Virus record (IMG/VR): IMGVR_UViG_3300048924_000196
Length of the DNA stretch: 35,571 bases
Origin: a virus
Reading direction: 5' to 3' (one strand)
Below the pieces are notes generated by a model. That model ran no database searches and was not told the origin of the DNA. It worked only from the letters and a program-made list of their open reading frames with translations. Position numbers and translations under genes: made by a program. This document shows positions 128-35,566 of this stretch, piece by piece. Numbering within the stretch: position 1 is the first letter of the stretch; every line of letters begins with the position of its first letter.

Positions 128-151
128 CCTCTTTTGGTTATGTTGCACCAG

Positions 152-350
152 CATTCACATGTACATGATCATTCGCATGTACATGCACACGCACATGCGC
201 ATGCACATTCTACCTCGCATGCACAATCAGGTTCACATGTGAATTTACATTAGCATGCACATCTGCATTTACACGTACATTTACATGTACATGTACGTTC
301 ACATTCAAATGTACATGCACATGCGAGTTTACGCAACCTGCACGTGCGGT
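152..350. promoter_or_regulatory. Array of at least 13 CATG-centred boxes (GCATGCACA / ACATGTACATG types) immediately upstream of parA on the circular map. Candidate partition centromere/operator (parC/parH-like).
   Basis: Seen in sequence: ttcacatgtacatg, cgcatgtacatgcacacgcacatgcgcatgcaca, gcatgcacaat, ttcacatgtgaa, gcatgcacatc, ttacatgtacatgtacg, aatgtacatgcacatgc. Its position upstream of a ParA + RHH operon matches type Ib par loci. Confidence 0.6.
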
Positions 351-1748: not shown

Positions 1749-1808
1749 TATTCCAACGTTTTCCGGGTTTCACCAACGGTTTTCCGGGACTAGCCAACAT
1801 TTTCCGGG
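1749..1808 (+). repeat. Three direct iterons CCAAC(G/GG/A)TTTTCCGGG spaced 20-21 bp apart (oriV of RepA)
   Basis: ccaacgttttccggg at 1753-1767, ccaacggttttccggg at 1773-1788, ccaacattttccggg at 1794-1808, directly upstream of a Rep_3-type gene. Confidence 0.85.
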
Positions 1809-1810
1809 TG

Positions 1811-1910: not shown

Positions 1911-1929
1911 ACCCGGAGAATGTTGGAAT
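1911..1929 (-). repeat. Inverted iteron overlapping the repA start codon (probable autorepression operator). TGTTGGAAT also at 1865 and 1901.
   Basis: The reverse complement of acccggagaatgttggaat is attccaacattctccgggt, which resembles iteron 1 with its flank (attccaacgttttccgggt). Confidence 0.6.
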
Positions 1930-2686
1930 GCGAAGACAACGAGCCGCGCTCGTGATGAACCCAGATGCGCCAGTGGCAGAAAAAAACGTCAACATGAGCA
2001 ACGCACTGATCCGCGCTGCTCACTCGCTGTCTCTGTCAGAGAAACGGCTTGTATGTGCGTGCATCTCGAAAATCGATTCGCTGCCCGCGCATGCGCCGAT
2101 TGTCCGTAACGGTGCCTGGACGGTGCGCCTGTCTGCGGCAGAGTACGCGGAGACATTTGAAGTCGACTTGAACACCGCTTACGAGCAATTGCACGGCGCG
2201 AGTGAAAACCTGTTTCAGCGTCATATCCGCGTGATGCGCGACACGAGCAAAGGGCCGAAAGAGAAAAAATTCCGATGGGTCGGCGGCGTCGAATACCACA
2301 AGGGCGAGGGATGGGTGGAGCTGCACTGGTGGCATGAAGTCGTGCCGCACCTGTACGGCTTGCGAAAGGAATTCACGTCTTACAAGCTGCGGCAGGCGGC
2401 GGCGCTGCGATCTGGGTATAGCTGGCGATTGTTCGAATGCTTCCAGTCGTGGAAGTCGACCGGGCAATACACGCCAACAATTGAAGACTTCCATAGGGCT
2501 ATGGACACGCCTGAAAGCGTTATGCGTGACTTTAGCCTTTTGCGTATGCGCGTGATTGAACCGGCTGTGTCCGAACTGCGCGAAAAGAACGGACTTGAAA
2601 TCGAATGGTCGACGCGCAAGGCCGGTCGAAAGGTGATCGGCCTCGAATTCAGGTTCAAGCCTGATCCGCAAACGAAACTGTTTTGA
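1928..2686 (+). CDS. repA: Iteron-type plasmid replication initiator RepA (Rep_3 family)
   Basis: N-terminal NALIRAAHSLSLSEKRLVCACISKID matches the Rep_3 signature (N-L-I-x-A-x-y-x-L-s-x-x-E-x-R-L). About 250 aa, preceded by iterons and DnaA boxes. Start uncertain: ATG at 1928, 1955 or 1994. Confidence 0.85.
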   Translation: MRRQRAALVMNPDAPVAEKNVNMSNALIRAAHSLSLSEKRLVCACISKIDSLPAHAPIVRNGAWTVRLSAAEYAETFEVDLNTAYEQLHGASENLFQRHIRVMRDTSKGPKEKKFRWVGGVEYHKGEGWVELHWWHEVVPHLYGLRKEFTSYKLRQAAALRSGYSWRLFECFQSWKSTGQYTPTIEDFHRAMDTPESVMRDFSLLRMRVIEPAVSELREKNGLEIEWSTRKAGRKVIGLEFRFKPDPQTKLF

Positions 2687-5798: not shown

Positions 5799-6752
5799 AT
5801 GATGAAAAACCCGTGGCGCGTCGCGTTGATGGGCGTTGCATTGGCGGCGCTGGCGTGCGTGGCGCAAGTGGCGTTCGCGCACAACCTTGTGCCGGTCGAC
5901 GTGATGGGCGCGGCTGGCGTGGCGCTGATGGGCGTTGGTAGCACGGCAAGCGTTGACCTTGCAAAGTCGAAGATGTTTCGCGTTGCTGTCGAGGGTGCAA
6001 CCATCGACGGGCGCACCATCGACCGGGCATGGTTGACGCAAGCGGCGGCGCAATATAACCCGACCGTCTACGGCGCGCGCGTGAACATGGAACACATCCG
6101 TGGTTACAGCGCTAACAGCGACTTCAAGGCGTACGGCGACGTGCTGGAGCTGTCGGCAAGCGAGATTACAGAAGGTCCGCTTAAGGGAAAGATGGCGCTA
6201 TACGCGTCGATTCAACCGACAGCCGATCTGGTGAAGCTTAACAAGGCAGGCCAAAAGATCTATACCTCGTGCGAGTTCAACCCGTCGTTTGCTGACACAA
6301 AGCAAGCCTATCTGACGGGCTTGGCCGTGACGGACAACCCGGCATCGCTCGGAACTCAAGTCCTTTCTTTCTCCGCTGCACATCCGACGACGAACCTTTT
6401 TTCGGAAGCGCTGGAAACGTCCATCGAGTTCGAAGAACAGAAAACGTCGATCGTTTCGGAACTGCTGTCGAAGGTCACGGCAATGCTGTCGAAGAAGCCG
6501 GATACGCCGGAAGTCGCAAAGCATTTCGCTGACGTGTCGGAGGCTGTCGAAGCCGTTGCGAATCACTCGGCACAGCAGGCGACGGCCATCGAAAATCTGT
6601 CGTCGCAACTCGCGACGGAGAAGGCGCGCGGCGACAAGCTCGCGACGGAATTCAGTGAACTCGTGCAGAAGCTCAACGCGACGGACGGCGGCGCACATCG
6701 CCCGAACGTCACGGGAAACGCGGGAGGCGGCGCAGCAGTAACCGACTGCTGA
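5799..6752 (+). CDS. O: Capsid scaffold/protease (P2 gpO-like) with an unusual hydrophobic N-terminal extension of about 58 aa
   Basis: From SKMFRVAVEGATIDGRTI... onward it aligns with gpO as I recall it (FFRIGVEGDTCDGR, VNMEHIRGY, YTSCEFNPSFA, LAVTDNPASLGT). GGAG at 5790-5793 precedes the ATG at 5799. Alternative start ATG at 5973. Confidence 0.85.
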   Translation: MMKNPWRVALMGVALAALACVAQVAFAHNLVPVDVMGAAGVALMGVGSTASVDLAKSKMFRVAVEGATIDGRTIDRAWLTQAAAQYNPTVYGARVNMEHIRGYSANSDFKAYGDVLELSASEITEGPLKGKMALYASIQPTADLVKLNKAGQKIYTSCEFNPSFADTKQAYLTGLAVTDNPASLGTQVLSFSAAHPTTNLFSEALETSIEFEEQKTSIVSELLSKVTAMLSKKPDTPEVAKHFADVSEAVEAVANHSAQQATAIENLSSQLATEKARGDKLATEFSELVQKLNATDGGAHRPNVTGNAGGGAAVTDC

Positions 6753-6830
6753 TCACATCAACGCATCACAGATTCGCATTGCTTTAGCACAACCTTCTTA
6801 ACAAGACGCCCCAACGGGCACGGAGTATAA

Positions 6831-7838
6831 ATGCGCAACGAAACCCGCGTTCTGTTCAATGCCTATCTGGCTGCAGTCGCGAAGCTCAACGCAGTGCAAT
6901 CGGTTACGGAGAAGTTCGCCGTTTCGCCGTCCGTCCAGCAAACGCTGGAATCGAAGATTCAGGAAAGTTCGGCTTTCCTGAAATCGATCAACATGATCCC
7001 CGTGCAAGAGCAGTCGGGGTCGAAGCTCGGGTTGGGTATCGGCGGCCCGATTGCCAGTACCACCGACACGAAGACCAAGGATCGCGTGCCGACGCAGCCG
7101 ACCACGATGGACGAAAACGGCTTCGTGTGTCAGCAGATCAACAGCGACACGGCGATTCCGTACGCGCTGCTTGACTCGTGGGCGATTTTCCCGGACTTCC
7201 AGACGCGTGTTCGCGATCAGATCATCAAGCGTCAAGCGCTCGACCGTATGGTTATCGGCTTCAACGGAACGAGCCGTGCGGCTACTTCGGATCGCGCAAC
7301 GAACCCGCTGTTGCAGGACGTAGGCAAGGGCTGGCTTCAAAAGCTGCGCGAGCAGGCGGCGGCGCGTGTGCTGAAAGAAACGACCGAAGGTAGCGGCAAG
7401 GTGACGGTAGGCGCGACAGGCGCTTACAAGAACCTTGATGCGCTCGTGATGGATGCGATCAACGATCTGTTGGACCCGTGGCATACGGAAGCGCCCGACC
7501 TCGTTGCGATCTGCGGGCGCGGCTTGCTGCAAGACAAGTATTTTCCGCTCGTCAACCAGTCGCAACCCAACACGGAAACGCTCGCCGCTGACGTGATCAT
7601 GTCGCAGAAGCGTATCGGCGGCGTGCCCGCAGTGACGGTGCCGTATTTCCCCGCCGGAAAGGTGCTGGTTACGTCGCTGTCGAACCTGTCGATCTACTAC
7701 CAGAACGGCGGGCGTCGCCGCACCATCGTCGACAACGCAAAGCGCGATCAGATCGAAAACTACGAATCGTCGAATGACGATTACGTTGTCGAAGACCTCG
7801 GCAAGTGCGCGCTCGTGGAAAACATCACCGCAGTATAA
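6831..7838 (+). CDS. N: Major capsid protein (P2 gpN-like)
   Basis: MRNETRVLFNAYL..KLN, IASTTDT, SDRATNPLLQDVGKGWLQK, LDALVMDA, QKRIGGVPAVTVPYFP and ENYESSNDDYVVED all parallel gpN. Confidence 0.95.
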   Translation: MRNETRVLFNAYLAAVAKLNAVQSVTEKFAVSPSVQQTLESKIQESSAFLKSINMIPVQEQSGSKLGLGIGGPIASTTDTKTKDRVPTQPTTMDENGFVCQQINSDTAIPYALLDSWAIFPDFQTRVRDQIIKRQALDRMVIGFNGTSRAATSDRATNPLLQDVGKGWLQKLREQAAARVLKETTEGSGKVTVGATGAYKNLDALVMDAINDLLDPWHTEAPDLVAICGRGLLQDKYFPLVNQSQPNTETLAADVIMSQKRIGGVPAVTVPYFPAGKVLVTSLSNLSIYYQNGGRRRTIVDNAKRDQIENYESSNDDYVVEDLGKCALVENITAV

Positions 7839-21553: not shown

Positions 21554-22578
21554 TGCGCGCACCGATATATTCCATTGAACTGAACGGCAAGCAACTCGCT
21601 GACGCCCTGAGCCCCTATCTTTCGTCGCTGACACTTACCGAATCACGCGAGGATGACGCCGACACCGTGCGGCTTGCGCTTGACGACAGCAAGGGCAAGC
21701 TAGCATTGCCCAAGCGTGGCGAAGTGCTGCGCGTGAGCTTTGGATGGTCCGATTCCGGCCTGGTGGACAAGGGGACATTCACCATCACCGAAGTGCAGCA
21801 TTCTGGAGCTCCGGACGTGCTGACCATTCAGGCGCGATCCGCTTCGATGACAAAGGAGATGGTCGAACGCAAGGAAAAGTCTTGGCATGGCACGACCTTG
21901 GGCGCAATCGTTAAGACCATTGCCGCCGCACACGGCTTAAAAGCGGCTGTAACGGCTTCGCTGGCTTCGGTGGCAATTCCGCACATCGATCAGACCAACG
22001 AGGGCGACATGAGCTTTTTGAGGCGTCTGAGCAAGCGTTACGACGCAACCATGACGGTGAAGGACGGAAACCTGCTGTTCACGGCCATCGGCAAGGGCAC
22101 CGCGAGCGGAAAGGAAATCCCGTTCCTGTTTATACGGCGGTATCGCGGCGACAGGCATTCGTACCACGTGAGCGAGCGCGAGAATTACAACGGCGTGCGG
22201 GCTCAATATCGCGGCACGGGCCGCAAAAAGCATTTGAGCGTGACGGTAGGGGGCGAGAACAGCAAGGGCATGAAGGTGTTGCCGGAGATATACCCGACCA
22301 AAGAACAGGCGATGGCGGCGGCGCAAGCCGAGTTTAATCGTACGCAGCGGTCTCAGGCGACATTCGATTACGAACTGGCGTTCGGCGTTCCGGATGCGAT
22401 CCCGGAGCGCGCCGTGTTCGTTGAGGGGTTCAAGCCGGAGATTGACGAGCAGGCTTGGTTGATCCGCAGCGCCGAACATGAGCTTGGCGACGGCGGATTT
22501 ACTACGCGCCTGATGATGGAGCAGGCCGACGACCCGACCACGCAGAAGCACAGGGAGAATTTCCAGCGGCCCAAATGA
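21553..22578 (+). CDS. D: Late control / tail protein D (P2 gpD-like)
   Basis: 341 aa. PIYSIELNGKQL...LSSLTLTESREDDADTV is typical of gpD. Last gene of the F operon. Confidence 0.9.
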   Translation: MRAPIYSIELNGKQLADALSPYLSSLTLTESREDDADTVRLALDDSKGKLALPKRGEVLRVSFGWSDSGLVDKGTFTITEVQHSGAPDVLTIQARSASMTKEMVERKEKSWHGTTLGAIVKTIAAAHGLKAAVTASLASVAIPHIDQTNEGDMSFLRRLSKRYDATMTVKDGNLLFTAIGKGTASGKEIPFLFIRRYRGDRHSYHVSERENYNGVRAQYRGTGRKKHLSVTVGGENSKGMKVLPEIYPTKEQAMAAAQAEFNRTQRSQATFDYELAFGVPDAIPERAVFVEGFKPEIDEQAWLIRSAEHELGDGGFTTRLMMEQADDPTTQKHRENFQRPK

Positions 22579-22612
22579 GAAACGCCCCGATGTTGAGTCG
22601 GGGCGTTTTTCT
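22579..22612. terminator. Rho-independent terminator after D (bidirectional; also ends the minus-strand 4-gene operon)
   Basis: aaacgccccga-tgttgag-tcggggcgttttt. Confidence 0.85.
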
Positions 22613-22622
22613 TTGCGTGTCG

Positions 22623-22799
22623 TCAGAACTGCATTCGAACGTCACTCGGCACGTGATACGTCTTGCCGCATTCGTCGCACTCGTGATTCCTGCCGCGCGG
22701 ATCAATCAGCCAGCCATCCTGTCGCGCGTCGCAGTGCGGACAATCAAGCGTGCAATCGTTGACCGTCAATCGCTCGACGCTTTTATTCTCTCCGCTCAT
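22623..22799 (-). CDS. 58-aa zinc-ribbon protein (CPHC...CDEC), below the ORF-track cutoff
   Basis: Hand translation: MSGENKSVERLTVNDCTLDCPHCDARQDGWLIDPRGRNHECDECGKTYHVPSDVRMQF*. ATGA overlap with the upstream ORF. Followed by a terminator. Confidence 0.6.
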   Translation of the reverse strand: MSGENKSVERLTVNDCTLDCPHCDARQDGWLIDPRGRNHECDECGKTYHVPSDVRMQF

Positions 22800-23086
22800 G
22801 CCGCAACCTCGCTCGTGAGTCCAGCCGCTTGCATGAACGCCGTAACGCTCTCCATATGAGCCGTCGACGCCGCCATGAGATTGCCTATCGTTGCGTCTTG
22901 CTGTTCGATGAACTGGCGCTGATCGGCAAGACGCGATTCGAGGTACGCGACACGCAAATTCAATGCATTGATGCGCGCCTCGTCTTCTGTGACGCGCTTT
23001 GCGGCTTGCTCAATGCATCGTTGCTGGTGAGGCGATGTACGCTTTCCGTATTCGCGCAGATTGGCAGCGAGTTGCTTCGCTTTCAT
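22796..23086 (-). CDS. 96-aa coiled-coil protein, function unknown
   Basis: Heptad-like EDEARINALNLRVAYLESRLADQRQFIEQQDATIGNL. ATGA overlaps on both sides. Confidence 0.6.
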   Translation of the reverse strand: MKAKQLAANLREYGKRTSPHQQRCIEQAAKRVTEDEARINALNLRVAYLESRLADQRQFIEQQDATIGNLMAASTAHMESVTAFMQAAGLTSEVAA

Positions 23087-23304
23087 TGACCATCCCCCAT
23101 CATATCCGCCATCTTAATAAGGCGCGCGCCAAGGTCGCGCGCTTCGGCGGAAGTCATTTCGAGCGAGAATCCAGAACGGATAGACGGGTCATTGGTCGTG
23201 AGCAGGCGAAGCGTTACCGAGTCAAGCGCCTTTGTTCCGATGACGCCGGATAGGCACTCGACCATTGCTTTGCTGCGGCGGCTGAATCGTTCCGATGCTT
23301 TCAT
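23083..23304 (-). CDS. 73-aa protein, function unknown
   Basis: ORF translationally coupled (ATGA) to both neighbours. No recognisable motif. Confidence 0.5.
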   Translation of the reverse strand: MKASERFSRRSKAMVECLSGVIGTKALDSVTLRLLTTNDPSIRSGFSLEMTSAEARDLGARLIKMADMMGDGQ

Positions 23305-23978
23305 GCTGACGCCCCCAATTGAACGGCCATCGAAGCCAGCGACGAAAGGGGCGAGCCTTTTGCCACGCGAGCGGCGCGAAGCTTCGCGACCATGCGCGAC
23401 TGAGTGGGGCGCACTTCAGCGAACAACGCCACGCGACGCGATACCGGCTTCTCTGCGTCTACACCTTCACCGGCCTTGTAGATGGCGACGCAGTCATACA
23501 CCGAACTTGTGTCCGATTGCCAGCCGGAGATGTGAATCAGCGATGCCGCCCGGAGTTTATTCACGTGATACAGCGCCGAATTACGCACTACGCCGACCAT
23601 CGATGCGACCTCGCCCGCCGTCATCGGCAGAGCGAGCGCCTTTAAAATTCGTGCAGCAGCGCCGTCTATCGTGCCAGCCGGACACACGGCATTCTTTCCC
23701 GGACCGAACGCATACACCGCAAACCGCGACTTGTCGCGCGCCTTACCTGCATCCCATCGCAATATATGCGACTCACCATCGGCAACGGCACGGTTAAGGT
23801 TCGAGCGAACGCTTTCGATGTGCATGCCCGTTAAAGACGACAGGTCACGAGCGCTTGCGCCCATCTCGCCGGACGCTTTGAGCAGCGACATGATGTATTC
23901 GCGGTTAGATTGCGGGGCGATTTGACCCAAGCTGTAACGCGTTCCCGAAGCTGCGCTCAATGCAATGCTGATATCCAT
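23301..23978 (-). CDS. Tandem winged-helix (2 x wHTH) DNA-binding protein
   Basis: ATG at 23978 with an AGGA Shine-Dalgarno. Internal duplication: YIMSLLKASGEMGASARDLSSLTGMHIESVRSNLNRAVADGESHILRW and ARILKALALPMTAGEVASMVGVVRNSALYHVNKLRAASLIHISGW. Confidence 0.65.
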   Translation of the reverse strand: MDISIALSAASGTRYSLGQIAPQSNREYIMSLLKASGEMGASARDLSSLTGMHIESVRSNLNRAVADGESHILRWDAGKARDKSRFAVYAFGPGKNAVCPAGTIDGAAARILKALALPMTAGEVASMVGVVRNSALYHVNKLRAASLIHISGWQSDTSSVYDCVAIYKAGEGVDAEKPVSRRVALFAEVRPTQSRMVAKLRAARVAKGSPLSSLASMAVQLGASA

Positions 23979-24063
23979 TTTCCTAGTCCCGTGTTGGTTT
24001 GTTCGCGCGCCAGTCCATCGGCACATTTCAAACTGTACTCCTAAACTTGTAGCGGCACAACAT

Positions 24064-24092
24064 CTTGTTAAGATTATTGACACCTTGTTAAG
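24064..24092. promoter_or_regulatory. Two direct copies of CTTGTTAAG 20 bp apart, bracketing a TTGACA hexamer (24077-24082) in the divergent promoter region. Candidate operator.
   Basis: catCTTGTTAAGattaTTGACAcCTTGTTAAGcc read directly, between divergent starts at 23978 (-) and 24150 (+). Confidence 0.55.
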
Positions 24093-24149
24093 CCTCAGGC
24101 AAGATTCGTCTTGCGGTACAGGACACGAATAAACACAGGGGAACACGAA

Positions 24150-24478: not shown

Positions 24479-25096
24479 ATGAAAATCATTCACACCCCGA
24501 TCAGCAAGCGAAACCCGGTCATCGACTCGGAAATCAATAGCCTGTTTGGTTGCGCTCGCGATATCGACGGCAATCGCACGCTCAACCTCAACCTCTCTAA
24601 CGGCACCGGCACGGTCTACATTTCGATGACGCAAGCCGAAGCGACGGCTATGGCCTCGACTATGGCGAGCCCGGATGCGAGCGTTGCGGCAGTGGCAACC
24701 GGCGTGCTGGCCGAAGTCGCCGGAGAGCGTTCGCGTCAAATCCTGACGAAGGGCTACACGCAGGCATTCGACGACAAGCGCACACCCGGCGAACTGGCGG
24801 CGGCGGGCAGCGCTTACGCGATAAAAGCGGCTTGCGGGATTCACCCCAGCTATACAGAGGTTGACCCGAACACGCCGCCCACTATCTGGCCGTGGGCAGC
24901 GAAGGCGTTCAAGCCCGACGACGCGCGAACGAACCTGATCAAAGCCGCAGCGCTGATCATCAGCGAGATTGAGCGGATGGACCGCGATGCACTGGCAGCA
25001 GCGCACGAAGCGGCAGCGGCAGAAGAACAGGCGGCAGCGCAAGCAGCAGCGGCGGCGATTGCAGCGGCAGCGGCATCGTCTAACCCTTCGGCTTAA
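24479..25096 (+). CDS. 205-aa phage protein of unknown function with a low-complexity Ala/Gln tail
   Basis: ATG at 24479 with an AAGGA Shine-Dalgarno. The central segment ERSRQILTKGYT..DD..TPGELAAAGSAYA...WPW..KAFKP.D.RTNLIKAAALIISEIERMDR resembles a domain I recall seeing repeatedly in phage proteins. Family not confidently named. Confidence 0.6.
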   Translation: MKIIHTPISKRNPVIDSEINSLFGCARDIDGNRTLNLNLSNGTGTVYISMTQAEATAMASTMASPDASVAAVATGVLAEVAGERSRQILTKGYTQAFDDKRTPGELAAAGSAYAIKAACGIHPSYTEVDPNTPPTIWPWAAKAFKPDDARTNLIKAAALIISEIERMDRDALAAAHEAAAAEEQAAAQAAAAAIAAAAASSNPSA

Positions 25097-25542: not shown

Positions 25543-25729
25543 GATCGGCGGGGCGGCGTTCGGCGGCGTTTTAGTGCATTTCGAGCGCGCCGACATGTAC
25601 GCGATGGTTGTTAATGGCCGGATGAAGCCCATCGAGCAGCACGCAGCCCGCAAGGCGCATCAGGCCGAACAAGCCTTCGCCCAAGCGTTCGCAGACACAT
25701 TCTTTGACATGGACGAGGCAACGGCATGA
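25454..25729 (+). CDS. 91-aa protein, function unknown
   Basis: ATG preceded by AGGGG. ATGA overlap with the P-loop gene. Confidence 0.55.
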   Translation: MYVIDRATPPQVFSATVPANSTVIGVIKPKIGGAAFGGVLVHFERADMYAMVVNGRMKPIEQHAARKAHQAEQAFAQAFADTFFDMDEATA

Positions 25730-26628
25730 AAGTAATCGAAACGCCCATCACAACAGCCGTCATCATTTACGGTCCGAAGGGCAGCGGCAAGACGACACAC
25801 GCGGCAGCGCTCGCCGCGCACTACGGAAAATCGCGCATCGTTGACGACTTCAAGCCGTCTAGCGCGGGATACCGGCGCGTCATCGACATGCCGTCCGACA
25901 CGCTGTTTATACTCAGTGGCGAGGGACCGGAGCGCACCGACCCCGGCAAAGACGCGTTCGTGCACATCTACCACGCGTGCAAGGCAGCGGGCATCGACCC
26001 GCATCCGATGTTTTACGGCTTGGGCATGACGCCGGTATATATCGCGTTCGAACCGGGCACCGAAGCGAAACGAGAGTTTCAAATTGCCTTTGAGAGGTCG
26101 CGCAGCATGCGCCAGTTGCCCAAGCTTTTCGCGTACGAACCCGGCACCGAACCGCAGCGCACCCGAACATCCGAATGGTTCGCACAGGAATACATGCTGC
26201 GCCCGAAGACCCCGCCCGTGTCGCACGAGTTCAACCCGCGCATCATGCCGGACCGCATGAGCGGCTTGCATTACGACTACCCGGACCGCAGCGGCATGGA
26301 CGCGGAAGCACTCAAGGCATTCGACCGGGCTCGATATGAGTGCGCCGCCGCACTCGCCGCGATGGTTTCGGCAATCGTCGCGCTGGATTTCATCGAGCGC
26401 CCGCGCGCAATTCAAGAGGCGTTCGAAATGCGTGAGGCGCACAAGGGCTGCGCGTATTACCTGCCTGAGTCGTTCGCGCTTCAGTTCGAACGGCAGCGCC
26501 GGTATTACCGCGACTTGCGCAACGGCAGCGGGTACGGGCGGCATGCGTACCTGAATGGACTGTGGCACGGCTGGCGCATGGCAATCGAAGCCGCGTGTCT
26601 CGCTCACGACACCAAAACCGTTTCTTAA
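25726..26628 (+). CDS. 300-aa protein with an N-terminal P-loop (Walker A GPKGSGKT) and an uncharacterised C-terminal domain
   Basis: VIIYGPKGSGKTTHAAALAAHYG at residues 12-34. Possible Walker B TLFILSGE. No named family recognised for the remainder. Confidence 0.65.
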   Translation: MKVIETPITTAVIIYGPKGSGKTTHAAALAAHYGKSRIVDDFKPSSAGYRRVIDMPSDTLFILSGEGPERTDPGKDAFVHIYHACKAAGIDPHPMFYGLGMTPVYIAFEPGTEAKREFQIAFERSRSMRQLPKLFAYEPGTEPQRTRTSEWFAQEYMLRPKTPPVSHEFNPRIMPDRMSGLHYDYPDRSGMDAEALKAFDRARYECAAALAAMVSAIVALDFIERPRAIQEAFEMREAHKGCAYYLPESFALQFERQRRYYRDLRNGSGYGRHAYLNGLWHGWRMAIEAACLAHDTKTVS

Positions 26629-27185: not shown

Positions 27186-27228
27186 GTACGTACACAAATA
27201 TGTTGCGGACCCGCATTTGTGTACGTAC
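27186..27228. promoter_or_regulatory. Perfect 14-bp inverted repeat GTACGTACACAAAT-N15-ATTTGTGTACGTAC directly upstream of brnT. Probable BrnA operator.
   Basis: Read directly. The right arm ends 10 nt before the brnT ATG. A TACAAT hexamer lies at 27227-27232. Confidence 0.6.
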
Positions 27229-27237
27229 AATAATCAC

Positions 27238-27507
27238 ATGGAAATCGAATTCGATCCCGCCAAAGACGCGGAAAACCAAATAAAGCACGGCATCCCGCTG
27301 TCGCTCGCTGCATCCTTCGAATGGGACGCAGCACAGGTGCAAGTAGACGATCGTTTCGACTACCGGGAAACGCGCATGGTTGCTATCGGCCCGATTGGTG
27401 ATCGCATTCATGTGCTCGTGTACACGATGCGCGGAGAAACCTTGCGTCCAATCAGCCTGCGCAAAGCAAACCGTAGAGAGGTTCTTAAATATGTCGACCA
27501 AGCGTAA
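27238..27507 (+). CDS. brnT: BrnT-family (DUF497) ribonuclease toxin
   Basis: MEIEFDPAKDAENQIKHGIPL....FEWD...VQVDDRFDYRETRMVAIGPIG..IHVLVYTMRGETLRPISLRKANRREV matches the BrnT pattern. Confidence 0.85.
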   Translation: MEIEFDPAKDAENQIKHGIPLSLAASFEWDAAQVQVDDRFDYRETRMVAIGPIGDRIHVLVYTMRGETLRPISLRKANRREVLKYVDQA

Positions 27508-27841
27508 GTTTCATATTCCATCGGACGCCGAAGATTCGGCCATCACGCGCGCGGCAGAGAGCGACCCGGACAACCCGCCCATCACTGACGCCGAATTCAA
27601 GCGAATGAAGCCCGCGCGCGAAGCGCTTCCGGCTCTCGTTGGCGACAAGGTTGCAGGGGAGTTATTGAAGCGGCGAGGACGCCGCCCGTTGCCAGCCGAT
27701 GAACGCAAAGTTCCAACAACGCTGCGTCTAGACCCGGATGTGCTGGACGCGTTCAAGGCAACCGGCGATGGGTGGCAAACACGCGCTAACGACGCGTTGC
27801 GCGCGTGGGCAAAATCACATCGCATGCTTCCGTCCAGATAG
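27491..27841 (+). CDS. brnA: BrnA-family (DUF4415) antitoxin
   Basis: RGRRPLPADERKVPTTLRLDPDVLDAFKATGDGWQTRANDALRAW is the BrnA C-terminal signature. Overlaps brnT by 17 nt. Confidence 0.85.
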   Translation: MSTKRKFHIPSDAEDSAITRAAESDPDNPPITDAEFKRMKPAREALPALVGDKVAGELLKRRGRRPLPADERKVPTTLRLDPDVLDAFKATGDGWQTRANDALRAWAKSHRMLPSR

Positions 27842-27871: not shown

Positions 27872-27902
27872 AAAGGGGCGGGCCTACAGGGCTTGCCCCT
27901 TT
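27872..27902. terminator. Hairpin between convergent brnA and the recombinase gene (aaaggggc-N15-gccccttt)
   Basis: 8-bp stem read directly. It overlaps the last recombinase codons. Confidence 0.45.
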
Positions 27903-28585
27903 GTATTTTGCATGCCGCACAGTGCGTCTACCCGCTTAACAAGGGCGCTGATTCCCGCAAGCGACCATCGATTGCCGCGCGATGTAGTGATTCCAAGGTT
28001 ATTCAAATGCGCGACCATATGGCGTTGTGTAAGTCCAGCGGCGCGCATTGCATTGACTTCATGCGCCATCGACATAGCGAAGGCGTCGGCACCCTCTACA
28101 AGCCGCGCGTTTGCCGCCGCTATGTTCGCCGCGCCGGTCGTGCCGAGCTTCACGCCTCGCGCTTTCGCCGCTCTCAGTGCATCTTTCGTGCGCTCGCTTA
28201 TCCGCTTCGCTTCGAACTGTCCGAATGCGGCCATTAGATGAATCGTGAACTCGTTTGCTTCGGGCAAGTCGAGCGCCCGAAATTTCACGCCACTTTCCAT
28301 CAATGTGGCGATGAACAGGACGTTACGCGCCAATCTGTCGAGCTTGGCGACGACTAGCGTAGCTTTTTCGGCTTTGGCGTGTGCCAGTGCAGCGGCAAGC
28401 TGCGGACGCTTGTTAAGAGCGTTTGCGCCTTTGCCCGTTTCGACTTCGATGTATTCACCGACCATCGATGCGCCCGTTGCCGACAGGTGATTGCGGATCG
28501 CGTCTTGCTGCGCCTCGAGTCCGAGCCCTGACATTCCTTGGCGTTGTGTGGATACGCGGATATACGCAACGATGCGGCCTGACAT
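27884..28585 (-). CDS. Small serine recombinase (resolvase/invertase family)
   Basis: IVAYIRVSTQRQ catalytic-serine motif, LVVAKLDRLARN, FGQFEAKRISERTKDAL, and a C-terminal HTH. Confidence 0.9.
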   Translation of the reverse strand: MSGRIVAYIRVSTQRQGMSGLGLEAQQDAIRNHLSATGASMVGEYIEVETGKGANALNKRPQLAAALAHAKAEKATLVVAKLDRLARNVLFIATLMESGVKFRALDLPEANEFTIHLMAAFGQFEAKRISERTKDALRAAKARGVKLGTTGAANIAAANARLVEGADAFAMSMAHEVNAMRAAGLTQRHMVAHLNNLGITTSRGNRWSLAGISALVKRVDALCGMQNTKGQAL

Positions 28586-28800: not shown

Positions 28801-29007
28801 TTAGTGCGTGCCGAACGTGCGCCTTAGATTGGCCCGGAAATTCTTGATAGCTCGCCAGTCTGACGCACTGATAGGCGCTGGCATCCATGCGCCTGAGCCA
28901 TCGACAACGCGCATATGCTTTCCGCCGCGCTCGACAGAAAGCCGCTTTCCAGTGCGCCCCATGTATTCATCGAGCGCGGCGCGGAATTCCCGTTTTAGCG
29001 ATTTCAC
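28801..29007 (-). CDS. 68-aa basic protein translationally coupled (GTGA) to the CI-like repressor. Weak HicA-like resemblance.
   Basis: The GTG at 29007-29005 overlaps the CI stop TGA at 29006-29004. KSLKREFRAAL...GGKHMRVV..G...MPAPIS...IKNFRANLRR loosely parallels HicA (K..EF...L...G..H......G....P.H...I......I.KQL). Confidence 0.5.
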   Translation of the reverse strand: MKSLKREFRAALDEYMGRTGKRLSVERGGKHMRVVDGSGAWMPAPISASDWRAIKNFRANLRRTFGTH

Positions 29008-29642
29008 ACGACACCCCGCAAGACGGCAAACGGACGGCCCATGCATACGACGAGGCTGGACGGCACCACGGCAGATTCATATAGCTGGTTATCGACTGCA
29101 AGGCGTATATCACCGTTGTGCAGCGTCATGACACGACGCAGCGACAGCCGGTCGTGAATCGACAGGATGTATAACCCATCGGCCTCAATGTCGCGGAATC
29201 GCGTGTCTATCAGCACGAGTTCGCCAACGCCTACAGTGGGATGCATGGCGTTGTCTTCGCATACCCACGCCGTAGCGCAATCCGGGTCCGCGCCGAACCG
29301 ACGAATAAATTCTGTGTTGAGCATCGCGAACGCCGGATGCGCGCGAAGCATGTCCGGCTGTACGCCAGGCGGAAGCAGCGGCACCGCCGAAAGACCCTCG
29401 CCCGAATCCATGCGCCCGGTCAAAAGCCAATCGACCGACACGGGACGCATTAACGAGACGCGTACGGCCTCGACGTAAGGCACTGAGCCGCGCTTGCGCC
29501 ACTGCGAAAGCGTCGCGCCTGAAAGGCCCAAATTCGCCGCCAATAGTACGTCCGTTTCGCACTGCATCGCCTCTTTCATGCGGTCAATAACTTCACCGGC
29601 GTCCACCGCGCACGAAACCGCATCGTGTTGTTTTCTTTTCAT
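29004..29642 (-). CDS. cI: CI-type prophage repressor (XRE HTH plus S24 LexA-like peptidase domain)
   Basis: HTH LAANLGLSGATLSQWRKRGSVPY. S24 core CEDNAMHPTVGVGELVLIDT...DGLYILSI. ATG at 29642 preceded by GGGAG. Confidence 0.85.
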   Translation of the reverse strand: MKRKQHDAVSCAVDAGEVIDRMKEAMQCETDVLLAANLGLSGATLSQWRKRGSVPYVEAVRVSLMRPVSVDWLLTGRMDSGEGLSAVPLLPPGVQPDMLRAHPAFAMLNTEFIRRFGADPDCATAWVCEDNAMHPTVGVGELVLIDTRFRDIEADGLYILSIHDRLSLRRVMTLHNGDIRLAVDNQLYESAVVPSSLVVCMGRPFAVLRGVV

Positions 29643-29681
29643 TTTTCTATCACTCCCTTTCAAAAAAGATGGACGGTCATT

Positions 29682-29997: not shown

Positions 29998-30267
29998 ATG
30001 GCACGCGAACAAATCGGCTTCCGTTTCGGTATTCACTGCCCGCACTGCGATTCAAAGACCACGGCGCGGACCTCGAAAGGACTGAGCAGGACACTTCGCG
30101 AGATTGTTTTTCAGTGCAACGACTTCCGCTGCGGACATACGTTCGTGGCAAACCTCGAAGCGGTGCGGACGCTTAGCCCGTCAGCGATGCCTAACGAGGA
30201 TGTGAAGCTCCCGATTTCTGAGCACGTCCGGGAAAGGGTGATGACTCAACTTCAATTACTAGGGTGA
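29998..30267 (+). CDS. ogr: Ogr/Delta-family zinc-finger late-gene activator
   Basis: IHCPHCDSKTTARTS......IVFQCNDFRCGHTF is the Ogr/Delta C-x2-C...C-x4-C pattern. Confidence 0.85.
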   Translation: MAREQIGFRFGIHCPHCDSKTTARTSKGLSRTLREIVFQCNDFRCGHTFVANLEAVRTLSPSAMPNEDVKLPISEHVRERVMTQLQLLG

Positions 30268-34438: not shown

Positions 34439-34620
34439 CAGTCCACCTTTACCGGCCCGATGTGCACGAATTTCAGCGGCTCTTCCGGCGTGAACTCATA
34501 GTCAAGCGTATAGCCCGTATCCGTCACATGCACAGCCTTGAGCTTCGCGCCGTCCGGGAATTCGCCGCGCTTCGATTCGAGCCACAGGGCATGGCTCATT
34601 GCCAGAAGCTGCGCGTTCAT
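34438..34620 (-). CDS. 60-aa protein, function unknown (third gene of the par operon)
   Basis: ATGA overlap with the upstream RHH gene and TGATG junction with the downstream H-NS-like gene. Confidence 0.5.
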   Translation of the reverse strand: MNAQLLAMSHALWLESKRGEFPDGAKLKAVHVTDTGYTLDYEFTPEEPLKFVHIGPVKVD

Positions 34621-34919
34621 TTCGCCCCCTGCTTCGCGAGCCAGTCAGTAACCGCATCCTCGAATGCATCGGCTCGACTCATTCCCAACGCTTCGGCCTG
34701 CTCAGTCATCCGAACTACAAGACTGGGTTTCATAGTCAGCGACAGCGGCGCTTTCGCTTCGCGCTTTGCCTTTCGAGCTACAGCCACAGGCGCAACAGGC
34801 ATGACCGGCGCGACCTCGACAATCTCTTTAACTTGCTGCACGCCATCCGGCGCACCGCCGATGAATGCCGCCGCCGCTGCCGGATCGCGCTTGGCAATCG
34901 GATTCGAAAACTTGCTCAT
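34617..34919 (-). CDS. ParG-like ribbon-helix-helix centromere-binding protein
   Basis: 100 aa with a flexible N-terminus. C-terminal RHH: LSLTMKPSLVVRMTEQAEALGMSRADAFEDAVTDWL. ATGA overlap with parA. Confidence 0.7.
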   Translation of the reverse strand: MSKFSNPIAKRDPAAAAAFIGGAPDGVQQVKEIVEVAPVMPVAPVAVARKAKREAKAPLSLTMKPSLVVRMTEQAEALGMSRADAFEDAVTDWLAKQGAK

Positions 34920-35566
34920 GCCGTCACCCCCATTGCCGCAAAGAATTCATCACGTACGCGCTCAATCTCCGCGCACGCCTTAACATCACGCTTCGTCATT
35001 TCGTCAACGTGCCTACCCTCGCCGCACGCGTTCGCAAACGCCTTGCGATCAGCCATGCGAGCCGACAGCAGTTCAATGCCCGGATATTCAGCGACAGCCG
35101 CAGCAGCGCCCGCGTTATCCGATCCGCCCGGATCAGCCCGATTGATGAAGGCGAACGCGCGCAAGTCAGCGATTGCGCGAGCCTCTTCGATCAGCGAGGC
35201 GATATCGGCCAATGCCCAAACATCGAACGAGCGCGGAAGGAAAGGGATTAAAACCGCATCGCTCACCGTCAACGCGCCGCGCAGCGCCGACGAATCACGC
35301 CCGCCCGCATCGATGACCACGTGATCGTAAGCGCCCGCCTGTTGCGTCACTTGAGCGCGCAGCGTCGCGCCGTCCGAATACGCTGATGCCGCGATCATCG
35401 GCAGACCTGTGCTGGCACGCACCGTGATAACGCTCGTTGCCGTTTGCTGCCGGTCCCCATCGACGAGCCAAACCTTTTTGCCATCAAGCGCGAGACCTAA
35501 TGCGATCTGCACGCCTACCGTCGATTTTCCGACGCCGCCTTTGCCGTGTCCTACCGTGAAAATCAT
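34916..35566 (-). CDS. parA: ParA partition ATPase (small type Ib, deviant Walker A)
   Basis: MIFTVGHGKGGVGKSTVGVQIAL. 216 aa with no N-terminal HTH extension. Confidence 0.9.
   Translation of the reverse strand: MIFTVGHGKGGVGKSTVGVQIALGLALDGKKVWLVDGDRQQTATSVITVRASTGLPMIAASAYSDGATLRAQVTQQAGAYDHVVIDAGGRDSSALRGALTVSDAVLIPFLPRSFDVWALADIASLIEEARAIADLRAFAFINRADPGGSDNAGAAAAVAEYPGIELLSARMADRKAFANACGEGRHVDEMTKRDVKACAEIERVRDEFFAAMGVTA

Follow-up and report, generated by a model that had tools for sequence, protein, structure and literature searches.

A winged-helix-led gene cassette convergent with gpD in a KS14-like P2-type phage-plasmid, and the dispersed 9-mer that accompanies it

What does a short operon of uncharacterised genes contribute to a phage-plasmid whose immunity, late activation, replication and partition functions are all encoded outside it? 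The question is raised by four minus-strand genes that converge on gpD in the IMG/VR virus record IMGVR_UViG_3300048924_000196, a stretch of 35,571 nucleotides (the window, in what follows) which is a complete KS14-like P2-type phage-plasmid. The four genes, referred to here as the cassette, encode a winged-helix (WH) protein of 225 amino acids (aa), an ORFan of 73 aa, a predicted coiled-coil protein of 96 aa and a zinc-ribbon protein of 58 aa. A first-pass annotation, made from the sequence alone, had regarded them as a possible anti-phage system. Tentatively, and with a good measure of doubt, we favour another reading, namely that of a regulatory and accessory module, specific to this lineage, in which the WH protein would be an autoregulator and the small proteins would not be obligatory. 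The coordinates of the features are collected in Table 1.

The cassette and its lead protein

The ATGA overlaps said to chain the four open reading frames (ORFs) are present at 23301-23304, 23083-23086 and 22796-22799, and a Shine-Dalgarno-like G-run lies 4-12 nt before each of the four starts. The operon and its translational coupling are real. It must be added that the coupling is ordinary, since overlaps of ATGA or of one base are usual for this genome, in whose ORF tables we counted nine other four-base overlaps of the ATGA type. A longer, GTG-started form of the WH ORF is unlikely because of the low guanine plus cytosine (GC) content at third codon positions of its N-terminal extension, and the GC content of the cassette is that of the genome. 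The zinc-ribbon ORF had been described as unannotated; in fact all four ORFs, the one of 58 aa included, were already JGI/IMG gene calls. The bidirectional terminator proposed to serve both the operon and gpD (identified by Pfam Phage_GPD and phrog_52 matches) was confirmed by a hairpin located between both stop codons, with folding values of −28 kcal/mol on the plus strand and −21.5 kcal/mol on the minus strand (z-scores −5.8 and −4.1, respectively), which 0 of 200 shuffles equalled. On the plus strand the hairpin is followed by the U-run UUUUUCUUU and on the minus strand by a weaker U-rich tail. A consensus terminator scan did not pick it up.

The contigs L001, L007 and L008 (the sister phages) and the short fragment L009 were recovered as relatives, and the comparison with them indicates that the WH, coiled-coil and zinc-ribbon genes are real and conserved. 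In the sister phages these genes form a three-gene cassette, convergent with gpD and in the same order, with products of 223-225, 80-81 and 58 aa, respectively, the coiled-coil homologs being about 70% identical and in the same position. L009 retains p73b (the divergent gene described below), a control region with three copies of the 9-mer CTTAACAAG and the start of a leftward gene. The ratios of nonsynonymous to synonymous substitution (dN/dS) with respect to the sister phages were 0.21-0.25 for the WH gene, 0.14-0.20 for the coiled-coil gene and 0.07-0.09 for the zinc-ribbon gene, compared with 0.19 for gpD. Values of 0.07-0.25 at a dS of 0.8-1.7 imply that the three cassette genes are under purifying selection. 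The 73-aa ORFan, in turn, corresponds in the alignment to a clean insertion of 219 base pairs (bp) between the WH stop and the coiled-coil start; in the three sister phages it is absent and the two codons abut (TGATG). The insertion has ATGAAAGC repeats at both ends, brings along a GGGGGA ribosome-binding site that serves the following gene and, to judge from this alignment, is a recent arrival in the operon.

In a further related contig, L012, gpD is closer to that of the window (84% identity) than it is in the sister phages. Here the WH gene stands without coiled-coil and zinc-ribbon genes, its product is 35% identical to that of the window and it ends 70 bp from gpD; in our own reading of the translations both predicted recognition helices (VRSxLxRA and SxxYHVxxL) are conserved. 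A conserved four-gene system, as initially supposed, is thus not what the relatives contain: there are four genes in the window, three in each sister phage and one in L012. The Burkholderia phages KS14 and FLC5 are without the cassette, KS14 having an unrelated gene convergent with gpD. The proposal that this is a variable cargo slot stands in so far as the interval from gpD to the recombinase differs among KS14, FLC5 and this phage, but within the clade the cassette belongs to the conserved backbone, diverging at a rate like that of gpD and not being swapped. The cassette was sought among INPHARED phages and PLSDB plasmids at both the DNA and the protein level, without a useful match, and a viral scan with gpD gave no new cassette variants.

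The lead protein had been called a tandem winged-helix protein, and this call was borne out by domain, model and structure searches. Pfam HTH_20 (PF12840) matched residues 105-149, corresponding to the second WH domain, with 31.3 bits against a cutoff of 27. The AlphaFold2 model, built with an alignment of the 78-representative family described below (mean predicted local distance difference test score, pLDDT, 85.8), consists of two H-H-H-beta-beta winged helices and a C-terminal helical tail. The top Foldseek matches in the PDB were tandem-WH proteins (ScpB, TFIIIC/RPC34 subunits and SelB) and also ArsR-type regulators, while the best viral matches were uncharacterised phage proteins, some of them of Burkholderia phages; PDB sequence matches include PH1932, SmtB and NolR. 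ScpB gave the lowest E-values (5e-7), yet with TM-scores of 0.25-0.36 and root-mean-square deviations above 11 Å. ScpB, RPC34, TFIIIC and SelB share with the 225-aa protein the two consecutive winged helices per chain (TM-scores 0.25-0.36, identities 10-21%), whereas there is no ScpA/SMC, Pol III or SelB context here; the resemblance is architectural only. With such TM-scores, and no SMC- or kleisin-like ORF in the window, the protein was not taken for an ScpB.

A lead protein with a domain and fold of DNA-binding type, encoded first in an operon that starts from a divergent region, favours a regulator. In this regard, the first-pass annotation had held that ordinary phage regulatory functions would speak against its proposal; such a function fits the lead gene, with its WH domains of DNA-binding type, and the other genes are without assignment. 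The likeness to the ArsR/SmtB regulators (HTH_20) consists in the second domain, which passes the threshold, and in the position of the gene at a divergent promoter, as is the case for many autoregulators. These regulators are, however, single-domain dimers that act on palindromes and often sense metals, whereas the 225-aa protein has two non-identical WH domains. A single-domain homodimer on a palindrome was accordingly discarded, given the two domains and the direct, asymmetric repeats nearby. Two further identities were rejected: a Rep3-type plasmid initiator (no Rep3 match was obtained with Pfam in the 225-aa protein, and the true Rep3 and its iterons are at 1.75-2.69 kb) and the primary immunity repressor, a place taken by CI/S24 and the divergent RHH-Ogr-primase operon at 29.0-33.5 kb (RHH, ribbon-helix-helix).

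The close relatives of the 225-aa protein form one cluster among 5.8 billion proteins, and a hidden Markov model search of 1.84 billion representatives revealed 78 relatives, only six of them with E <1e-10. Family members are mostly of 180-250 aa and have two repeats with the signature hHIxGW...VYxxGxGxDAPxP, in which a winged helix ending in hHIxGW is followed by a strand and then by GxGxDAPxP; the sources name them MarR-type at best and otherwise hypothetical. The Ren-like phrog_142 matched residues 24-69 of the 225-aa protein (E 3.1e-5) and 17 of 55 family members (best 1e-8), while the comparison of the family profile with lambda Ren by hhalign was weak and not significant (probability 16%, E 0.0016). 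This is a rare, uncharacterised family whose repeats weakly resemble lambda Ren. Ren/phrog_142 proteins have a single WH module plus a beta-hairpin, to which the halves of the 225-aa protein and of its family each have a weak match. In addition, two lambdoid-type contigs (L005 and L006) carry family members directly downstream of replication-type genes, as ren is placed, and that of L005 lies upstream of NinG, the position of ren in lambda. In contrast with Ren, the 225-aa protein has a tandem module and a C-terminal helical tail, and it heads its own operon in a P2-type phage. As a separate observation, a protein of 1338 aa (P0006) showed 11 matched stretches of the repeat family (E 2.9e-43) and can therefore be described as a long array of WH modules in one chain.

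The divergent control region and the dispersed 9-mer

The WH gene and the rightward gene p73b diverge from a control region in which a block of approximately 75 bp is nearly invariant with respect to the sister phages, even though synonymous sites are close to saturated (dS 0.8-1.4). In the window this block contains two direct copies of CTTAACAAG placed 20 bp apart; in the sister phages there is a third, with spacings of 20 and 17 bp, and the WH promoter of L012 has two imperfect copies. A perfect rightward −35 hexamer (TTGACA) is found at 24077-24082, with one CTTAACAAG copy in the promoter spacer and the other just upstream, and this other copy adjoins a leftward promoter candidate of our own reading (−35 at 24060-24055, −10 TACAGT at 24037-24032).

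On this arrangement rests the mechanism that we propose. The WH protein, probably as a monomer, would bind the tandem CTTAACAAG repeats between and inside the back-to-back promoters, and by doing so it would autoregulate its own operon, on the left, and repress the accessory one that extends on the right from p73b as far as the toxin-antitoxin (TA) genes. The cassette would be expressed in the plasmid-prophage state, and the coiled-coil and zinc-ribbon proteins may be co-translated passengers or modulators, not obligatory subunits. As far as the sequence can tell, any protein seated on these repeats would control both promoters, and the neighbouring WH protein is the obvious candidate; for a monomer whose two WH domains are not identical, a 9-bp site lacking symmetry would be suitable. 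The other leftward non-late genes (CI, recombinase and ParA/ParG) all have prophage-state functions, and the orientation that the cassette shares with them hints at its expression in that state.

Several points weigh against this proposal. The hexamers of the promoters are weak, their conservation is only partial, and the promoter scan tool returned a different, non-conserved leftward pair (TTGCCT-18-AATAAT, minus strand). Since CTTAACAAG is dispersed, with 19 exact copies, those at the promoters need not be a dedicated operator, and another protein could bind them. The lambdoid family members stand in mid-operon near replication or nin genes and have no promoter of their own, so the family is not generally an autoregulator. 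ScpB and the Pol III/TFIIIC subunits, to which the TM-scores of 0.25-0.36 refer, use their tandem winged helices largely for protein contacts. Finally, the occurrence of the zinc ribbon in virulent phages suggests a function unrelated to prophage regulation.

No other gene of the region is as conserved as p73b (89-93% identity in the sister phages, dN/dS 0.03-0.07), which was without any family match. Its product contains cysteines, and the gene is absent from L012. Variable cargo sits rightward of the divergent promoter, with BrnTA and other genes here and ParE/HTH modules and other genes in L007 and L008. In L007 an extra ORF of 57 aa (6741-6914) lies between the conserved control block and p73b, from which it follows that the control region tolerates the insertion of a gene on its right. 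The idea that CI operator words are common to the main switch and the cassette promoter was also considered and rejected, the resemblance being of 7-mers at chance level.

Among the 9-mers of the window, CTTAACAAG has the greatest over-representation, about 70-fold: 19 exact copies were found (13 on the plus and 6 on the minus strand), about one per 1.9 kb, when approximately 0.25 are expected under an order-3 Markov model, and with one mismatch allowed there were 34 copies compared with 3.3 in shuffles. Intergenic positions or overlaps with a stop codon account for eight of the 19 (P 4e-4), and the replication/partition module has none (P ~0.01). The 11 coding copies read LNK, LVK or PLTR. 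CTT and GTT are rare codons in GC-rich genomes, and their presence in the coding copies therefore points to selection at the DNA level. The 9-mer and this WH subfamily occur together in the window, L001, L007, L008 and L012, and both are absent in KS14, FLC5 and KL3; this co-occurrence is confounded by phylogeny and host. A genome-collection scan for two CTTAACAAG copies within 30 bp revealed at least 120 loci in scattered taxa, with no dispersed enrichment among the matches listed. Rep iterons or parS were rejected as an explanation of the repeats, given the distinct 21-bp iterons and the array at 146-334. Likewise, the 10-mer GCGCAGCTCG of KS14 and FLC5 was rejected as an analogous lineage word and attributed to a codon or peptide-word effect. 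It is present in 19 copies in KS14 (L003), 12 in FLC5 (L004) and 4 in KL3, when approximately 1.4 are expected; 17 of the 19 in KS14 are coding, mostly within ELR or AQL words in preferred codons, and GCGCAGCTCG is probably compositional, not a binding site.

CTTAACAAG is either the site of a clade-specific DNA-binding protein, the WH protein being one candidate, or a signature of the host, for example an uptake- or Chi-type word. That the WH protein is a monomeric, sequence-specific binder of CTTAACAAG throughout the genome, the clade having spread this word across its structural and regulatory DNA and the cassette being a second layer of genome-wide control or self-marking, is in our opinion unlikely. 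The P1 plasmid prophage has a C1 repressor with an asymmetric operator at many scattered sites, and Lxc and Coi are small proteins that modulate it. The combination here of a tandem-WH protein with a dispersed asymmetric 9-mer and with small proteins expressed alongside may parallel that system, and C1 with its scattered operators would be the functional analogue of such a layer, built from unrelated proteins. There is no relation in sequence or fold between the two; moreover, unlike P1, this phage has a CI/S24 repressor, and most of the CTTAACAAG copies are coding and not at promoters.

The same evidence bears on a different role, in the maintenance or organisation of the plasmid prophage genome, in which the WH protein on dispersed CTTAACAAG sites, with the coiled-coil protein as its partner, would compact, silence or segregate the DNA, in the manner of ScpB or ParB or of P1 C1. 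Such a role would accord with the ScpB chains among the top Foldseek matches, with the excess of CTTAACAAG, its enrichment at gene ends and between genes and its absence from the replication/partition module, with the rare codons of the coding copies, and with the co-occurrence of 9-mer and WH subfamily in five related contigs. Nevertheless, KS14 is kept as a plasmid without the cassette (PMC3091744), and dedicated functions are already present in the form of Rep3 with iterons and ParA/ParG with a repeat array. The ScpB TM-scores are low and neither an SMC nor a kleisin partner is available; the co-occurrence is subject to the confounding indicated above and the word may be of uptake or Chi type in the host. 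We consider this role very improbable.

The small proteins and alternative readings of the cassette

The 58-aa protein is a member of phrog_16376 (E 8.7e-12, residues 12-56 against profile positions 9-53 of 56). The call of a zinc ribbon was upheld by the cysteines of its CPHC and CDxC motifs (CPHC...CDEC in this protein), which are invariant in close homologs, and by an all-beta AlphaFold2 model of generic ribbon type (pLDDT 70.8), for which Foldseek gave no significant structural neighbour. Its identification as an Ogr/Delta activator was rejected, since it has no PF04606 match and the real Ogr is encoded elsewhere (Table 1). With tblastn, matches were obtained in 30 phage records, and homologs occur in the jumbo phages BcepSauron and BcepSaruman, in T4-like Aeromonas phages and in Vibrio phages; in the T4-like Aeromonas phage 65 the homolog is located in the rIIB-alc early region. 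A metagenome scan added only the sister contig and one spurious match. The closest homolog in an isolate genome (64% identity) is found at 8001-8177 of L002, from Burkholderia cenocepacia (GCA_046054065.1, JAIMHO010000018.1), 10 bp after a gene for a T7-like single-subunit RNA polymerase. L002 has also a DNA polymerase A gene and, according to our own ORF reading, an integrase at its end; because of these polymerase and integrase genes it can be described as a T7-like prophage-type element.

The coiled coil of the 96-aa protein is predicted from a regular hydrophobic 3-4 spacing read from the sequence, with which weak coiled-coil Pfam matches agree. The heptad pattern extends over residues 39-70 (I39-L42-V46-L49-L53-(Q56)-I60-(Q63)-I67-L70), and no significant homolog was found outside this clade. 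For the ORFan, viral contigs and GenBank phages contained no homolog; its likeness to a 74-aa ORF of L002 (pairwise E 4e-4, small-database E 0.8) is not significant. That ORF lies approximately 0.9 kb downstream of the zinc-ribbon homolog.

The company kept by these zinc-ribbon homologs raises the alternative that the cassette works early in the lytic cycle, in host takeover or counter-exclusion, and that its tandem Ren-like WH protein and its zinc ribbon would act after induction on functions of the host or of a competitor. Precedents are lambda Ren, by which Rex exclusion is escaped, and the small early proteins with which T4 and T7 act on the host. Each WH repeat resembles the Ren-like phrog_142, the family members of L005 and L006 are at a ren-like position, and the places in which the zinc ribbon was found (after a T7-like RNA polymerase, in rIIB-alc and in jumbo phages) are early lytic contexts. 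In opposition to this, the comparison with the lambda Ren profile is as weak as stated above, the cassette has a conserved divergent control region of its own, outside the early operon of the CI/Cox-like switch, and its orientation is that of the prophage-state genes. Furthermore, the analogy predicts little, the mechanism of Ren being unknown. An early lytic role is possible, though we are inclined to doubt it.

The remaining alternative is that of the first-pass annotation, in which the cassette is a prophage operon for anti-phage defence or superinfection exclusion and its four products form a complex. It had recognised no known defence, anti-defence or TA family among them, and neither PADLOC nor Pfam nor NCBIfam gave such a match. 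PADLOC-DB v2 produced only incidental similarities, to the HTH regions of Csa3/CARF proteins (E 1.7e-4 to 5e-3) and to the zinc ribbon of Cas12f/Cas12u2 (~2e-3), and no match at all for the 73-aa and 96-aa proteins. Toxin or antitoxin domains were detected in none of the four proteins with Pfam and NCBIfam, and Pfam, PHROG and NCBIfam likewise revealed no domain of effector type (nuclease, NTPase, protease, membrane or sensor). All the products are uncharacterised, so a new system is possible. The interval differs among KS14, FLC5 and this clade, the leftward orientation is common to prophage-state genes, and accessory slots of P2-like phages are known to harbour defence genes (PMC13586616).

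Nonetheless, the published defence hotspots of P2 lie for the most part in the gpA-gpQ stretch, and those at int-att, at int-primase and after gpL are minor (PMC13586616); the slot after gpD, which had been presented as one in which P2-like phages carry such genes, is not among them, and its content is not swapped. The cassette is like the P2 morons old, tin and fun(Z) in that its genes are accessory, lie apart from the morphogenetic operons and occupy an interval which varies from one relative to another. It differs from these morons and hotspots in that it matches no defence model, has the GC content of the genome and is conserved within the clade at the rate of gpD, unlike defence cargo. 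As to a complex, the zinc ribbon is free-standing and common also in virulent phages, which argues against it as well as against a defence role specific to lysogeny, and the gene content is not kept as a unit; this variation (four, three or one genes) together with the independent distribution of the zinc ribbon argues against an obligate multi-subunit system. None of the findings marks the cassette as a system of anti-phage defence; that interpretation lacks support and we regard it as quite unlikely.

The phage-plasmid setting and significance of the cassette

The structural genes of the window have approximately 67-69% DNA identity to those of the Burkholderia phages FLC5 and KS14 (genus Kisquattuordecimvirus), and the layout of CI and the RHH-Ogr-primase operon is the same in both. 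For KS14, lysogeny in plasmid form has been demonstrated by experiment (PMC3091744). Taken together with Rep3 and its iterons, the presence of ParA and the fact that no tyrosine integrase was seen in the window, this is the basis of the phage-plasmid assignment. The element looks circular, and the CATGTACATGCA-type array next to the ParA module is probably the centromere. The closest plasmid match of ParA is from Caballeronia (61%), and the host is probably a betaproteobacterium. Given that CI, Ogr, Rep3 with its iterons and ParA with the centromere-like array are all encoded elsewhere, the cassette is accessory.

Table 1. Position of the cassette, its control region, other functional modules and the CTTAACAAG copies in the window.
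Feature	Position	Strand	Remarks
Winged-helix protein, 225 aa	23301-23978	-	ORF, ATG start; cassette gene 1
ORFan, 73 aa	23083-23304	-	ORF; strain-specific insertion
Predicted coiled-coil protein, 96 aa	22796-23086	-	ORF
Zinc-ribbon protein, 58 aa	22623-22799	-	ORF; CPHC...CDEC; phrog_16376 member
Bidirectional intrinsic terminator	22577-22615	both	Hairpin folding; gpD (+) and cassette (-)
Divergent control region	23979-24149		~170 bp; two tandem CTTAACAAG copies on the minus strand, 24064-24072 and 24084-24092
p73b, 73 aa	24150-24371	+	Divergent gene heading the rightward accessory operon
BrnT/BrnA toxin-antitoxin pair	27217-27841		
Serine recombinase	27884-28585		Invertase-like
CI repressor	29004-29663		Phage_CI_repr and Peptidase_S24; divergent from the RHH-Ogr-primase operon
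Ogr	29998-30267		Ogr_Delta match, 2.4e-18
Primase, 925 aa			In the RHH-Ogr-primase operon
ParA and RHH partner	34617-35566		ParA/ParG pair
Hexamer-type repeat array	146-334		6/12/18-bp CATGTACATGCA-type repeats; adjoins the ParA module; centromere-like
Rep3 iterons	1753-1809		21 bp
Rep3 initiator	1928-2686		Rep3_N 9e-36, Rep3_C 5.6e-15
CTTAACAAG copies 1-10	2692, 4618, 5254, 6237, 6797, 7857, 8405, 10411, 10737, 12520		
CTTAACAAG copies 11-19	14415, 17696, 18927, 24064, 24084, 27935, 28409, 29940, 30655		

Some neighbouring genes deserve comment. A protein of 205 aa (24479-25096, plus strand) matches with its C-terminal ~130 residues the C-termini of larger phage proteins in phrog_6628 (1e-31), phrog_9763 and phrog_11504, all of unknown function, and has no Pfam match; this part looks like a widespread uncharacterised phage domain. 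A protein of 300 aa (25726-26628, plus strand), for which only an N-terminal P-loop (Walker A) match was obtained, is part of the rightward cargo that varies between phages, and L001 does not have it. A TA slot separates the accessory operon from the serine recombinase. It is occupied in the window by BrnT/BrnA, in L007 (8887-9454) and L008 (4354-4921) by a ParE-like toxin with an HTH protein and, according to our own ORF reading, by a similar pair in L012 (1068-1635); this is a TA-swapping position in a phage-plasmid. An ORF of 81 aa on the minus strand (28801-29046), which overlaps by 43 bp the 3' end of the CI repressor gene, has 78% identity in L001 and gene calls of similar size in L007 and L008, and represents a conserved small gene between CI and the recombinase.

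Although undescribed, the cassette belongs to a familiar type, that of phage accessory operons with a WH protein at their head. Its status as a defence candidate does not hold up and, therefore, it should not be prioritised for phage-challenge screens. Its value lies elsewhere. It offers a clean example of one gene inserted in a translationally coupled operon with its own ribosome-binding site, and the family of tandem Ren-like WH proteins, with a confident model now available, could help to explain proteins of the lambda Ren type. The dispersed 9-mer CTTAACAAG is of greater interest than the operon and is what most deserves to be followed: should the WH protein read it, phage-plasmids would have a genome-wide control of a new kind, and if it belongs to the host, it may be an undescribed uptake- or Chi-type sequence of a betaproteobacterium.

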